A stretch of 64,000 nucleotides of DNA, taken from the NCBI GenBank assembly GCA_034659915.1, contig JAYEID010000010.1:660-64659 (forward strand), written 5' to 3'. The notes under the pieces were generated by a model. It was not told the origin of the DNA. It worked only from the letters and a program-made list of their open reading frames with translations, and searched no databases. Source of the stretch: Patescibacteria group bacterium (lineage in GTDB: Bacteria; Patescibacteriota; WWE3; JAUXAW01; JAYEID01). Numbering within the stretch: position 1 is the stretch's first letter; each line of letters opens with the position of its first letter. Below are positions 59,532-63,712 of the stretch, piece by piece. A program made the translations under genes and the position numbers.

Positions 59532-60304
59532 CCACTTTTGATATGTAAAGTGGGAGCTTCCTCTAGTGTTTGTAAATGGAGGGTTGGGGCTTGTCAAAAA
59601 CTAGCTTCGTTTGTAAATTTTCAAAATTTTGTAGTTTTGTCTCCTTTTTTTTTCCTAACCACAAAATCTAAAAAAGGTGTTTTGATAGGTCTTATAATTG
59701 GTAACTGGTAACTAGCAAGTAGTAAGTAGTAAGTAGTAAGTAGTAAGTAGCTAGTATTTAGTATAGCTAATTTATACTAATTTAATACGGCGAATTAATG
59801 CGAACGGGAAGGAAGAAACTGGTAACTAGCAAATGTTCGGGTAAGACCCTCACGTAAAGTGTAGCTCAGAAGCTACGTAAATATGCGCCTTCGGCGCGTA
59901 ATCCTCATCGCTTTCCGCCTACCGCATTCGGCATTCCGCAATCCGCAATCCGCTATCAGCAATTAACAATCAACAATAAGCAATTATTTTCCACCTCCCT
60001 TTATTCCTTATTCCTTATTCCTTATTCCTTATTCCTTATCTCTTATTTAATATTTCGTATTTATTTGGAGCTTAGAGTTCCCAGTCTCTTCAATCTTTTC
60101 TTTCTTTACCAAGACCTCCGGGGATTCGATTCCGAAACCCCGCAGGACTTTTAGGTTCGAGTCCCTGCCGGCAGGCAGGCAGGCCTGCCTGCCGGCAGGC
60201 AGGTCCAGTCTTCCCATTAGCATAGATTCGCTACTGTTAAATTCGCATAAATTAGCTATATCAATTCGCATTAATTCGCTACCTCAGGTAATATAAAACA
60301 CAAC
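59532..60304. repeat. 770-bp repeat-built spacer where rplA would normally follow rplK
   Basis: Contains, in order: (agtaagt)n, gcgga-type units (reverse complement), the caat unit block identical to 33900-33975, (ccttatt)n, tatttcgtattt, REP-X copy at 60080-60185, nested palindrome CCTGCCGGCAGG-caggcctg-CCTGCCGGCAGG at 60160-60210, then attcgc units. Confidence 0.7.
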
Positions 60305-61627
60305 ATGAAAGAGACGGTTATTTTCTTAATTTCATTTGTGTTATTAGCACTGTTAAGCTGGAAATTTTCAGCAGGAGTGTATCAATTAATAGGGGCTGGC
60401 GACTCCCCTGAATACATATTTGTTGCTGAAAGCCTAATACAAGACAGAGACATTTTTTTGGAAAACCAAGCACACAAATTTGTAATTCACAACCTCAACG
60501 ACAAGGAAGAGGTAGAACCATACGCCATAAGGGAAACACCTCCTAATCAGCTAGACCTAAATGCGTTCTATCCCACCAACGTTATTCCCAAAGATGGGCA
60601 CCTTCTCCCCTACCATCCGATTGGGCTCTCACTCTTAATTGCTCCCGCAGTAGCTATACTAGGAAAGTGGGGAGCTATGCTCACCATAAATCTTTGCGCA
60701 GCTCTCTTAGCCCTTGTTTTTTACAAATACACAAAGAGGTTTTCCCTTGCCTTCCTGCTAACTTTTTCCCCTCCCCTACTCTATCTATCTCTCCTCTGCT
60801 TTAACGAGATACCAACAGCTTTAATTATTTTTTATATTTTCACAGTTATTCAAAAGGAATGCCTGCCCCAAACAACGAAAGGAGTAATTACTACTGCCTT
60901 AGGACTGGGATTCCTGCCATGGCTCCACCCTAAATACTCGATAATTTCAGGGATTTTTATCTTATACTGCATATACAAAGTACAAAAAGACAATAACCTA
61001 TCGCTCAAAAAAGCTACTTACAAAGTTCTAAAACACCCAATAACATTAACTAGTATCTTTTCCCCCATTCTACTGTTTTGCTTTTATCAACAAGTATATG
61101 GAACCTGGAGAGCTGCGCTTGCAACTGGTCATCCTGGAATAATAAATCCACTAAAAGGTTTGCTTGGCTTATTTTTGGGCCGCGAATACGGAATTATACT
61201 TCACGCTCCTTTGCTCCTTTTACCTTTGGGTAATATTCTCAAAAACAAAAAGGTGCAAAAAAAACATAGCCCTATACCTCCAACTATAATAGGCACATTC
61301 ATTCTTGGAATCAGCCTTTTTGGCAACTGGCACGGAGGTGTGGCACCTGCCGGACGCTTAATTGCGCCCGCCATACCTTTCCTATTTCTTTATTTTCCAA
61401 GTCCAAAAACAATTACAAATCAGGTTGTTCAAACCTTGTTAGTAATTGCAACCGCCTGTCTAGTTCTAACAAACTTTGCGACACAAAAAACTCCAGGAGT
61501 AGTACTTCCTACTGGAAGAAATCACACTTTTCAACAATTACCGGGAGGAGGGCACCTTAACAATATCCTACCCTCCACAATAGACTCTTCTGGTAAGATA
61601 AAACCAATAAGCCTTTGGTGGGAGTAA
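60305..61627 (+). CDS. polytopic membrane protein, putative glycosyltransferase (GT39/GT83-like topology)
   Basis: About 12 TM helices with a short periplasmic loop early on; no definitive motif. Overlaps the next gene by 13 nt. Confidence 0.3.
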   Translation: MKETVIFLISFVLLALLSWKFSAGVYQLIGAGDSPEYIFVAESLIQDRDIFLENQAHKFVIHNLNDKEEVEPYAIRETPPNQLDLNAFYPTNVIPKDGHLLPYHPIGLSLLIAPAVAILGKWGAMLTINLCAALLALVFYKYTKRFSLAFLLTFSPPLLYLSLLCFNEIPTALIIFYIFTVIQKECLPQTTKGVITTALGLGFLPWLHPKYSIISGIFILYCIYKVQKDNNLSLKKATYKVLKHPITLTSIFSPILLFCFYQQVYGTWRAALATGHPGIINPLKGLLGLFLGREYGIILHAPLLLLPLGNILKNKKVQKKHSPIPPTIIGTFILGISLFGNWHGGVAPAGRLIAPAIPFLFLYFPSPKTITNQVVQTLLVIATACLVLTNFATQKTPGVVLPTGRNHTFQQLPGGGHLNNILPSTIDSSGKIKPISLWWE

Positions 61628-63525
61628 TTATGAAAAAAAGAATTATAAAAAATGCTGTTTTCCTTAGCTTAGCACTAATTGCAGTTGCTGCTACCTCAAT
61701 AAAGGCGCTTACCAATTCCGATATTTGGCTTTGGCTCCGGGTGGGAGAAACTGTAGTAAAAGGAAAAATCATTCCCCAGCAAGATTTTCTCTCCCACACT
61801 GCTTGGGGGAGACCTTGGATAGTACATGGGTGGGGTTTTGGAGCTCTAACTTATTTAGCCTACACAATAGGAAATGAAATAGCACTAGCTTGCCTAAGAC
61901 TAGCAATAAGCTTAGGAACATTTCTAGCTCTTTTCAAAAGAAGCAAAATCCTAAAGTCGGGAATCCCTCAGTTTGCAGCCGTCGCAACCACAGGCTTTTT
62001 TACTATTAGCAATGCTTGGATGCTTAGACCCCACATTTTGGGAGGTTTTCTTCTTACCTTTCTTCTCCTAACCATTGATCTCTACCGAATTAAAAACCCG
62101 AAATATATTCTCCTAGCTCCAATATTAATTCTTTTTTGGGCAAACACTCACGCAAGCTTACCTTTAGGACTTGTTCTTCTCTTTATTTTACTAGGAAGCG
62201 AACTCTCAGAAGATATTCTCTCTCCCCAAACAAAAGGGTCTTTTCAACCTCTAATCCAAAGCAAGAAAACAAAGTTGTTAAATATTGCTATTTTCTTAAG
62301 CATTCTTGCCTCTCTTGTAAATCCCTATGGTATTAAAATCTACCAGTACTTTTTTAAAATAAGTGACACTGTAAAACAGAATATTCTCGAGTGGCTACCT
62401 CTTGCCAACTTTCTCAATTGGGAAAATGCCCAATACTTTTTAATTTTCCTAGCAATAAGTCTGTTAGCCCTGATCTTAGTTGCAACCCTCCTGCCCACAA
62501 AAATTAGCCATTGGGAAATAGCTCTGACACTAATTTCAGCTTACCTTGCAATCTCCGCTCTTCGCCATATAGTAATTGCCGTCCTAATCCTAATTCCCTT
62601 GGTCTCAAAAAATATCACCATGCTTACTGAAAAGTTACGAGGGATAAAAAGGTACATCTTAGAAGCTCTTTTTGTCTTGTTAATAACTACTGTAGGCTTC
62701 AATGCAACAAAAAGTGTAGCAAAGGAAGGTTGGGGCTTGCGTTGGGATATTTTGTCACCCCAAGCAATCCAATTTCTAAAACAGAACCCCCCAAATGGAA
62801 AAATGTACAACCACTTTAACTTTGGAAGTATTTTGCTTTGGCATCTTTATCCTGACTATAAAACATTTATTGATGGGAGAGTAGACATGTTTGCTCCAGA
62901 TATATACAAAGAGTGGCTTGCAGCAGCCACTGACGAAAACAATTGGGAAAGCATTTTCCAAAAATATCAAGTAAGCTGGGTAATTTTCCCAACCAAAGAC
63001 ATATGGCCCGGGCTTAAAGAAAAAGTAAATAACGGCAGCTGGTGCGTGGTTTTCTGGGACGATACTGCTAGTATTATTCTCAAAAAGGAAAATAACACCG
63101 AACTATGCTCAGCTCTAGCTTACAACTATGGAAACCCGTTTCTTCCTGAGGATGAAATAACTAATTATCAACAAATAATTGAAGAATATAAAAGATCAAT
63201 AAAAGCCTCTCCTTACAACGCAAGTACCCACAACAAATTAGGAAAGCTCTACGGGGAGCTTGGCGAATTTGAAAAAGCTGAAAATGAATTTCAAGAAGCT
63301 ATAGAAAAAAACCCCACATATGTAATTCCCTATCTTAATCTTGCTTCCCTAAAAGAACGAGAAGACCCCCAACAAAGCATTAAAATTCTTGAGAAAGCGA
63401 TTAAAGAAAACCCCCAAGCACCGCAACCCTACCAAGAACTTTCTCAGCTCTACAGACAAATTTGGGGAGATACAAAAAAGGCAAATAAATACTTGAAATT
63501 GTATCAAAAAAAAAGTAGCAAGTAG
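61615..63525 (+). CDS. polytopic membrane protein with C-terminal TPR repeats, putative glycosyltransferase
   Basis: About 11 N-terminal TM helices and C-terminal TPR (YNASTHNKLGKLYGELGEFEKAENEFQEAIEKNPTYVIPYLNLAS). Confidence 0.35.
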   Translation: MVGVIMKKRIIKNAVFLSLALIAVAATSIKALTNSDIWLWLRVGETVVKGKIIPQQDFLSHTAWGRPWIVHGWGFGALTYLAYTIGNEIALACLRLAISLGTFLALFKRSKILKSGIPQFAAVATTGFFTISNAWMLRPHILGGFLLTFLLLTIDLYRIKNPKYILLAPILILFWANTHASLPLGLVLLFILLGSELSEDILSPQTKGSFQPLIQSKKTKLLNIAIFLSILASLVNPYGIKIYQYFFKISDTVKQNILEWLPLANFLNWENAQYFLIFLAISLLALILVATLLPTKISHWEIALTLISAYLAISALRHIVIAVLILIPLVSKNITMLTEKLRGIKRYILEALFVLLITTVGFNATKSVAKEGWGLRWDILSPQAIQFLKQNPPNGKMYNHFNFGSILLWHLYPDYKTFIDGRVDMFAPDIYKEWLAAATDENNWESIFQKYQVSWVIFPTKDIWPGLKEKVNNGSWCVVFWDDTASIILKKENNTELCSALAYNYGNPFLPEDEITNYQQIIEEYKRSIKASPYNASTHNKLGKLYGELGEFEKAENEFQEAIEKNPTYVIPYLNLASLKEREDPQQSIKILEKAIKENPQAPQPYQELSQLYRQIWGDTKKANKYLKLYQKKSSK

Positions 63526-63605
63526 TCAGCAGTAAGCATAAAATCACGAGAACATAAAAACATGAAAACATTCAAACAATGATTAACTGATTTATGATTT
63601 AGGAA

Positions 63606-63712
63606 TAAGACAGGCAGGCAGGGACTCGGACCTGAAAGTCCTGCGGGGGCAGTACCACACGGGGTACACCCTGTAGGTTTCGGAATCGAATCCCCGGAGG
63701 TCTCGGCAGGGA
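63606..63712 (-). repeat. REP-X repeat copy, inverted relative to the copy at 60080-60185
   Basis: gggactcggacctgaaagtcctgcggggg[cagtaccacacggggtacacc]ctgtaggtttcggaatcgaatccccggaggtctcgg is the reverse complement of aagacctccggggattcgattccgaaaccccgcaggacttttaggttcgagtccc (60104-60158), with a 25-nt hairpin insert. Confidence 0.65.

Follow-up and report, generated by a model that had tools for sequence, protein, structure and literature searches.

The repeats closest to those described here are the repetitive extragenic palindromic (REP) elements and bacterial interspersed mosaic elements (BIMEs), together with miniature inverted-repeat transposable element (MITE)-like elements. These are short, non-coding, strictly intergenic and multicopy, are found in both orientations, and retain their stem-loops through compensatory changes. 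REP copies can also act as substrates for rearrangement. Heptamer tandem repeats in intergenic DNA are a separate type, to which the cyanobacterial STRR (short tandemly repeated repetitive) repeats belong. The TAACTGA repeats of Beggiatoaceae, Cyanobacteria and Bacteroidetes likewise form arrays in intergenic DNA and are reported (PMC4679880) to consist of essentially one heptamer, in direct repeats only. Here we compare with these systems the end of a 64,000-nucleotide stretch of DNA from a Patescibacteria group bacterium (assembly GCA_034659915.1, contig JAYEID010000010.1, positions 660 to 64,659; hereafter the window), a member of the candidate phyla radiation (CPR), in which two membrane protein genes downstream of rplK are bracketed by inverted copies of an element, REP-X, and by blocks of heptamer arrays.

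We find that the inverted repeats flanking this gene pair are ordinary building blocks of the intergenic spacers of this genome and not transposon ends, and that the striking feature is the spacer architecture across the genome rather than the block containing the gene pair. The explanation that we favor, and regard as reasonably likely, is that the block is a resident operon for proteins of predicted GT-C glycosyltransferase fold that was relocated by recombination among repeat-rich spacers. Gene 1 (60305–61627, + strand; 440 aa; MEA2020348, locus tag U9M98_01375) and gene 2 (61630–63525, + strand; 631 aa with the ATG start of the public record; MEA2020349) follow rplK, the gene for ribosomal protein L11 (59103–59531, + strand; Pfam Ribosomal_L11_N and Ribosomal_L11; MEA2020347), which is the final gene of a secE-nusG-GxxExxY-rplK run ahead of the block. 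The spacer between rplK and gene 1 (59532–60304) is built from repeats and measures 773 bp, in agreement with the preliminary description of the window, which noted some 770 bp of repeat-built spacer and then two membrane genes. That description had the two genes overlapping; the genes themselves are borne out, but with the ATG start 2 bases separate them (an alternative TTG start at 61615 would extend gene 2 to 636 aa). The spacer 3' of gene 2 (63526–64000) extends to the end of the window.

The preliminary description also reported oppositely oriented REP-X copies and mirrored caat/gcgga blocks on either side of the gene pair, and we re-found all of these inverted repeats. The inner repeats comprise a 44 nt match (60096–60139 with 63676–63719) and a 35 nt match (60138–60172 with 63614–63648), each 91% complementary, and the outer repeat is a 48 nt match (59942–59989 with 63853–63900) that is 90% complementary. 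Pairwise alignment of the two flanks resolves two well-matching stretches with poorly matching heptamer arrays in between, and a stretch of about 29 nt that is present in the downstream REP-X copy only and not in the upstream copy. The longest exact complementary runs between the flanks are 28 nt and 26 nt, and none of 100 shuffled versions of the window contained a match to the 22-nt REP-X core. The left arm of the outer repeat (59909–59989, + strand) consists of arrays of CGCATTC (6.4 copies) and CAATTAA (3.9 copies), which are the gcgga/caat block of the earlier account, and the right arm (63749–63900, − strand) of an AAGCGGA array (4 copies) and the inverted caat block at 63853–63900. These blocks are thus real, but they are not specific to this locus: heptamer arrays are common to many spacers, and the window contains six caat blocks, some in one orientation and some in the other. 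Inverted matches between the two flanks of the block total 98 nt, and those of unlinked spacer pairs 92, 79 and 67 nt; the block flanks are the top-ranked spacer pair by this measure, yet no outlier. The secE-nusG genes are bracketed likewise by an inverted repeat of 67–74 nt (57472–57545 with 58328–58401; 88% complementary). This second bracket is built from a module that usually sits directly upstream of start codons, and its architecture is the same as that around the gene pair.

We characterized the REP-X family with a covariance model (R1) built from three copies and then used to search the window and the loci of relatives. There are at least six copies (at least five in the window and one, on a Logan assembly contig of the same genome, L089, that carries rplJ), all of them intergenic, with three on the + strand and three on the − strand. 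The long form is found after gene 2 (core 63618–63712, with a tail to 63745; + strand, 110.9 bits) and in the spacer between nusG and the GxxExxY gene (58408–58503; + strand, 104.3 bits), and the short form in the spacer between rplK and gene 1 (core 60103–60168; − strand, 64.9 bits, E = 2.6e-17) and in that between the RNase HII and MnmA genes (11279–11345; − strand, 25.5 bits, E = 2.5e-5). A partial copy consisting of hairpin 1 lies between tRNA-Thr and tRNA-Trp (56997–57041; − strand, 18 bits, E = 0.005), and the copy on L089 (79–145; + strand, 17.7 bits) lies 69 nt upstream of rplJ. What looks like an insertion in the copy downstream of the gene pair is therefore the long form, as also seen at 58408–58503, and the upstream copy (60064–60168) is a short form without hairpin 1, whose purine-rich tail reaches to about 60064 and is similar to 11233–11280. 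The flanking cores are non-coding and 66–96 nt long.

The predicted structure of REP-X is two hairpins closed by an outer stem. In an alignment of six sequences only, itself fitted to the model, 95.7% of cells are paired and 8 of the 26 pairs have changed on both sides; controls in which the pairing partners were slid by 1–3 columns give 32–59%. The copy at 11279–11345 carries compensatory changes in hairpin 2. REP-X is a dispersed, hairpin-forming intergenic element of REP/MITE type, roughly 70–130 nt long, and the two copies flanking the block are unexceptional examples of it. Its likeness to REP/BIME and MITE-like elements extends to all of the properties listed above for them. It differs from REP/BIME in having two hairpins closed by an outer stem instead of a single palindrome, in its long and short forms, in lying embedded among heptamer arrays, and in having a CPR bacterium as host; it matches no Rfam family, and no REP-associated tyrosine transposase (RAYT) or other transposase was seen in the window. 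The covariance model did not find REP-X in the few kilobases of the relatives' loci that were searched, and a 20-mer of the REP-X core had no match in viral contigs and just two chance matches in metagenome contigs, inside high-GC coding sequence. At three or fewer mismatches only two copies are seen, as if REP-X were private to the block flanks, a view overturned by the copy in the nusG spacer and by the covariance model. REP-X has GGTTCGAGTCC-like motifs that might suggest descent from a tRNA, but ARAGORN and Rfam call no tRNA there. A perfect, G+C-rich palindrome, CCTGCCGGCAGGCAGGC / GCCTGCCTGCCGGCAGG (60164–60203), abuts the upstream REP-X copy and reflects a local GGCA expansion.

The other constituent of the spacers is a large set of heptamer arrays. 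Tandem Repeats Finder reports about 35 period-7 tandem arrays in the window, nearly all in intergenic or rRNA-operon spacers, and five of them lie in the two flanks of the block (59708–59750, 59909–59953, 59960–59986, 60001–60047 and 63749–63776). Examples elsewhere are at 33822–33882, 46716–46760, 48091–48149 and 52590–52624. Within the spacer that follows rplK, a GTAAGTA/TAGTAAG array of about 6 copies (59695–59763) represents a module that also follows stop codons in other spacers, a TTATTCC array (60001–60047) has 6.7 copies, and an ATTCGC/ATTAGC module (60238–60293, + strand) that also precedes other genes lies directly upstream of the start codon of gene 1. An all-against-all comparison of spacers shows such modules to be widely common, as direct and as inverted copies. 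The arrays resemble the TAACTGA repeats (PMC4679880) in being 7-nt tandem arrays of 2–9 copies, often near start codons and beside ribosomal protein genes, and the window units TAACTAG and TAACTGG resemble TAACTGA itself. Unlike those repeats, the window has many different heptamers (TAGTAAG, TTATTCC, CAATCAA, CGCATTC, AAATACT and others) in both orientations, and its arrays combine into mosaic modules that recur between spacers. Spacers made from shared heptamer arrays and a structured REP-like element are unusual for the small, streamlined genomes of the CPR, and because the spacers are built from repeats the assemblies of such genomes fragment.

We next consider the gene order around rplK, since the preliminary description held that the block interrupts a linkage between rplK and rplA. 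A scan for L11 in species-representative genomes yielded 80 loci, in 66 of which L1 is encoded next to L11, with most of those going on to rplJ and rplL. Ten CPR loci have no rplA after rplK; it is missing from two more loci as well, these being short contigs whose sequence stops a little way past rplK. Among the ten are L003 and L006; in the other eight rplJ does not adjoin rplK either, and gatB and other housekeeping genes lie downstream of rplK in seven of these eight. From their N-termini, we take the genes that accompany gatB in the seven loci to encode thymidylate kinase and a dCMP-deaminase-like protein. Gene order beside rplK is fluid in CPR lineages that have no rplA there.

The closest relative found is L003, with which the window and its genome share 93.7% identity in L11, 91.6% in NusG, 89.7% in L10, 80.6% in SecE and 64% in the GxxExxY protein. 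Its gene order is secE, nusG, GxxExxY, rplK, about 370 bp containing an L10 leader, rplJ and rplL, with no membrane genes. The leader (1976–2110) scores 47.3 bits against a gathering score of 44 and lies about 100 nt upstream of rplJ, with repeat modules between. An independent Logan assembly of the same organism (L093, run SRR7048220) has the same order up to rplJ, where the contig ends, and in the more distant CPR relative L006 rplK is again followed by rplJ. Pfam searches of the 64-kb window found no L1 homologue, and the L003 and L006 contigs have none either, an absence that is read from 64 kb and a few small contigs. Loss of L1 in part of the CPR has been published (OD1-L1 group; PMC5220378; bioRxiv 10.1101/2022.01.07.475337), and the window, L003 and L006 are like those lineages in having no rplA after rplK. 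Since rplA does not follow rplK in any of the three, this lineage has no rplK-rplA linkage for the block to interrupt: L003 runs from rplK through the L10 leader to rplJ and rplL without rplA, and other CPR loci are alike.

The preliminary description suggested comparing relatives for presence of the block and for the position of rplA; this comparison finds no rplA in the window, L003 or L006, and identifies the position of the block as lineage-specific, given that L003 and L093 lack it. As there are no membrane genes at the L003 site, we infer that the position seen here is the derived one and that the move was in this direction. The spacer between rplK and rplJ in L003 and the spacers of the window have only short generic modules in common. 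There is no credible L10 leader or other Rfam family in the last 300 nt of the window, and no L10 leader in the 213 nt upstream of rplJ on L089, a contig that does not overlap the end of the window and whose first 30 nt are a copy of the module at 58372–58401. This close pair of genomes that differ after rplK offers a concrete case for studying repeat-mediated rearrangement.

The gene pair itself is found together in other contexts. Contig L086, from the run that also holds the L003-type organism (SRR7048220), encodes a pair that is 70% and 74% identical to genes 1 and 2, in line with the 64% identity of the syntenic GxxExxY protein, and ends in repeat modules; no REP-X is present in the available 57 nt upstream and 144 nt downstream of this pair. 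A more distant pair on L083 (41% and 49% identical) lies a few kb from mreB, mreC and the gene for PBP2, adjoins other GT-C genes, and again has no REP-X in the available flanks. The gene 2 homologues on L084 and L085 have a neighborhood similar to that on L083, and the neighbors of the homologues in relatives include TMEM260_N/PMT_2 proteins. Whereas mreC/mreD come after mreB in L083 and L084, in the window mreB is followed (45578–54194) by GT4, WecG/TagA, GlgA-like and two GH57 genes, a further sign of gene-order change where relatives host the GT-C pair. Genes 1 and 2 have a GC content of 0.40 and 0.38 and a third-position GC content (GC3) of 0.356 and 0.342, for gene means of 0.413 and 0.352. 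With these typical GC and GC3 values, and a tetranucleotide distance that is just marginally the highest, a foreign origin on grounds of composition was rejected. Because its composition is typical and because it is kept together in relatives, the pair is native and old and not foreign cargo. The earlier view of the genes as accessory cargo is accordingly not sustained.

We propose that a two-gene operon resident in this CPR/Patescibacteria lineage now lies downstream of rplK, at the position where relatives have rplJ-rplL. Relocation most likely occurred by ectopic homologous recombination between common spacer modules; excision followed by re-insertion would fit, and so would a more extensive rearrangement that broke within the rplK-rplJ spacer. 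The REP-X copies may have inserted after the relocation, and rplJ would presumably lie further downstream of the block. Several observations weigh against this account or limit its detail. By tetranucleotide profile the block deviates more than any other of 57 windows, if by a slight margin (0.0206, with the next maximum at 0.0199), for which the composition of membrane proteins is a sufficient explanation. The genes for L7/L12 and L10 of the same metagenome-assembled genome (MAG; MEA2020838 and MEA2020839) are on a separate contig of 7,821 nt whose upstream sequence does not overlap the last part of the window; insertion into the rplK-rplJ spacer and a larger rearrangement are therefore on an equal footing. 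Breakpoints are not mappable at the nucleotide level because the spacers of L003 have diverged completely. That L086 and L003 belong to one genome is our inference from the run in common and the degree of identity. Finally, REP-X was not found in the available kilobases of relatives; its spread may therefore be recent, and active mobility is conceivable, which leaves room for a contribution from a mobile element.

An alternative is that the block is a mobile cassette, with the inverted REP-X copies serving as the ends of a non-autonomous, MITE-pair-like element moved into the rplK-rplJ spacer by a transposase encoded elsewhere. REP-X copies do bracket the block in inverted orientation, the closest relative has no block at this site, the apparent absence of REP-X from relatives could reflect recent spread, and the short and long forms look like MITE deletion variants. 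The resemblance to composite transposons, in which cargo likewise lies between inverted repeat copies and the unit is absent at the same site in a close relative, is nevertheless incomplete. Of the 54 ORFs that reach 100 aa, Pfam scans covered 42, with opposite-strand shadow ORFs inside larger genes left out, and they also covered an ORF of 60 aa, making 43 gene-like ORFs in all. As the preliminary description had also noted, no transposase or recombinase emerged from the 64 kb, and the only mobility-type matches are a GIY-YIG fragment and, in the rRNA operon, a pair of LAGLIDADG homing endonucleases. The block segment holds the two GT-C-like genes only, with no recombinase domain inside or adjacent. 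A target-site duplication had been proposed as a feature to look for at the block ends, and neither pair of possible ends shows one: the outer ends of REP-X have no direct repeat reaching 5 nt, and near the caat ends there is nothing beyond the trivial 5-mer CCGCC. The arms are just ~90% identical, with 28 nt as their longest exact run, and the composition of the genes is native in a vertically conserved pair whose ortholog on L086 lacks REP-X in its available flanks. Other REP-X copies are solitary, in neighboring spacers and in both orientations, and with at least six copies in 65 kb an opposite pair in adjacent spacers needs nothing special. We therefore consider a cassette of this kind fairly improbable. 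A related but broader idea is that the heptamer arrays and REP-X together constitute a genome-wide recombination scaffold, transposase-free or mobilized in trans, that moves whole operons, with the gene pair caught soon after its move. This we regard as doubtful; were it correct, REP-X would have spread after the split from the relative with 94% identical L11 and would represent a new element family that is active today.

The repeats could instead have a function as a bracket, either as crossover sites for inversion or by forming a long-range RNA duplex that is cut in the manner of an rRNA processing stem and so separates the operon from the ribosomal protein mRNA. Some ~77 + 48 nt of ~90% complementarity surround the block, and a similar bracket is present at secE-nusG. 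For inversion there is, however, no adjacent recombinase, and the exact runs of 28 and 26 nt are at the lower length limit for homologous recombination; since the genes of the window are nearly all on the + strand, an inverted block would also oppose the local orientation bias. As to a duplex, each REP-X folds stably alone, so that local folding should prevail over pairing across 3.4 kb, and modules in both orientations everywhere would lead to promiscuous pairing. A functional bracket is accordingly very improbable. The idea of a composite insertion or invertible segment, raised in the preliminary description, likewise gives way to the dispersal of REP-X, the commonness of heptamer arrays, the similar bracket around secE-nusG, and the lack of a duplication or recombinase. 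It is also conceivable that the rplK-gene 1 junction is a chimeric short-read join inside common repeat modules, and that rplJ truly follows rplK, as it does in L003. The modules of the spacer are exact over 26–30 nt at several loci; rplJ-rplL are on another contig, with L089 starting 213 nt upstream of rplJ within repeat modules; and independent Logan contigs from two runs (L001, L002 and L088) break on both sides of the block and 215 nt after rplK, with L001 and L002 ending inside the repeats, and so do not confirm the junction. Logan assembly uses k = 31, however, so that every 31-mer repeat interrupts a contig, and the fragmentation of these contigs therefore says nothing about the MAG assembly. 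The common modules are far shorter than a read, and the 773-bp spacer contains unique stretches (for example 59820–59900). As the modules are exact over no more than about 30 nt and the 68-kb contig crosses some 30 such spacers cleanly, a mis-join at the repeats is unlikely, and an artefactual placement of the block is an explanation to which we give distinctly little weight. Relocation of a resident operon by recombination among the spacers remains the account that we prefer.

Both genes encode polytopic membrane proteins with a predicted GT-C glycosyltransferase fold, and their description as membrane glycosyltransferase-like is thus borne out at the level of the modeled fold. AlphaFold models made on alignments of homologues have a mean confidence (pLDDT) of 76.5 and a predicted TM-score (pTM) of 0.83 for gene 1, and of 91.1 and 0.87 for gene 2. 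Compared with GT-C enzymes in the PDB (STT3, PglB, AglB, ArnT, PMT and DPY19), both models give a Foldseek probability of 1.00 and TM-scores of 0.44–0.52. For gene 1 the matches include AglB (E = 1.4e-4) and ArnT (TM-score 0.52), and also STT3 and PglB; for gene 2 they are STT3, PglB and AglB (E = 7.7e-7 to 2.6e-6, TM-score about 0.5), and also ArnT and DPY19. Gene 1 has no match in Pfam; its one family match, a weak one in NCBIfam to the LA_3751/LA_3752 putative glycosyltransferase family (E = 6e-13), falls short of the curated cut-off. Its residue D33, invariant in 9 sequences, lies just after the first transmembrane helix in a GD-x-PEY motif. In gene 2 a predicted GT-C-fold domain at the N-terminus is followed by a small alpha/beta domain and, at the C-terminus, by tetratricopeptide (TPR) repeats; the only Pfam matches of gene 2 are to TPR families, at residues 510–630.

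The two proteins are thus like the GT-C enzymes in the fold of both predicted structures, and in the case of gene 1 in the presence of D33, but unlike them in that neither gene matches a Pfam GT-C family, and in that gene 2 has Asn for the first Asp of the DxD-like motif of its family. The consensus of that motif is DxDxWWH, where the window protein has N-S-D with the Asp outside the columns that are at least 90% conserved. No PDB chain was matched by sequence with either family profile, and a metagenome scan with gene 2 gave no relatives. The gene 1 family, which Pfam does not cover, is large: at E ≤ 0.001 it comprises 8,074 cluster representatives. If the modeled folds are a guide, the pair probably functions in glycosylation of the cell envelope or of envelope proteins. 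It would then be a conserved, uncharacterized GT-C-fold addition to the cell-envelope repertoire of the CPR, with a gene 1 family that is thousands strong and lacks a Pfam model.

The last part of the window contains, in order, tRNAs (four genes, 56221–57324), secE (57549–57737), nusG (57796–58332), the GxxExxY / PDDEXK_3 gene (58623–59033, between nusG and rplK), rplK, a spacer, gene 1, gene 2 and the final spacer. The GxxExxY protein has the PDDEXK_3 nuclease fold, and the gene for its 64% identical counterpart occupies the same place in L003. Protein accessions are consecutive along the public contig of 68,340 nt, from a Fic protein (MEA2020308) on to L11, gene 1 and gene 2.

Elsewhere in the window, a 324-aa ORF at 28147–29121 without a Pfam match is a compositional outlier (GC 0.559, GC3 0.532, for the gene means given above) that could be foreign DNA or non-coding; long ORFs on the opposite strand lie over it at 28162–28569 and 28782–29183. 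The rRNA operon (13148–21405) contains homing-endonuclease ORFs, with tRNA-Ile and tRNA-Ala between 16S and 23S. A LAGLIDADG_2 ORF (14222–14878) is within the 16S span, whose best score is with the archaeal SSU model, and a LAGLIDADG_1 ORF (20090–20557) is just past the 23S match, ahead of the 5S at 21290–21405. Between tRNA-Tyr and tRNA-Thr lies an ORF of 60 aa (56699–56881) that encodes part of a GIY-YIG nuclease domain. The 911-bp spacer after an APH-family gene holds a sub-threshold match to 6S RNA (55672–55812, + strand; 37.5 bits where the gathering score is 46.4; E = 6.9e-5). Finally, a hairpin repeat, CACCCCGACATA...GTCGGGG, recurs in tRNA spacers and immediately past the 3' ends of tRNAs, with copies at 16359–16404, 35285–35330, 43877–43922, 57325–57370 and 57376–57407.

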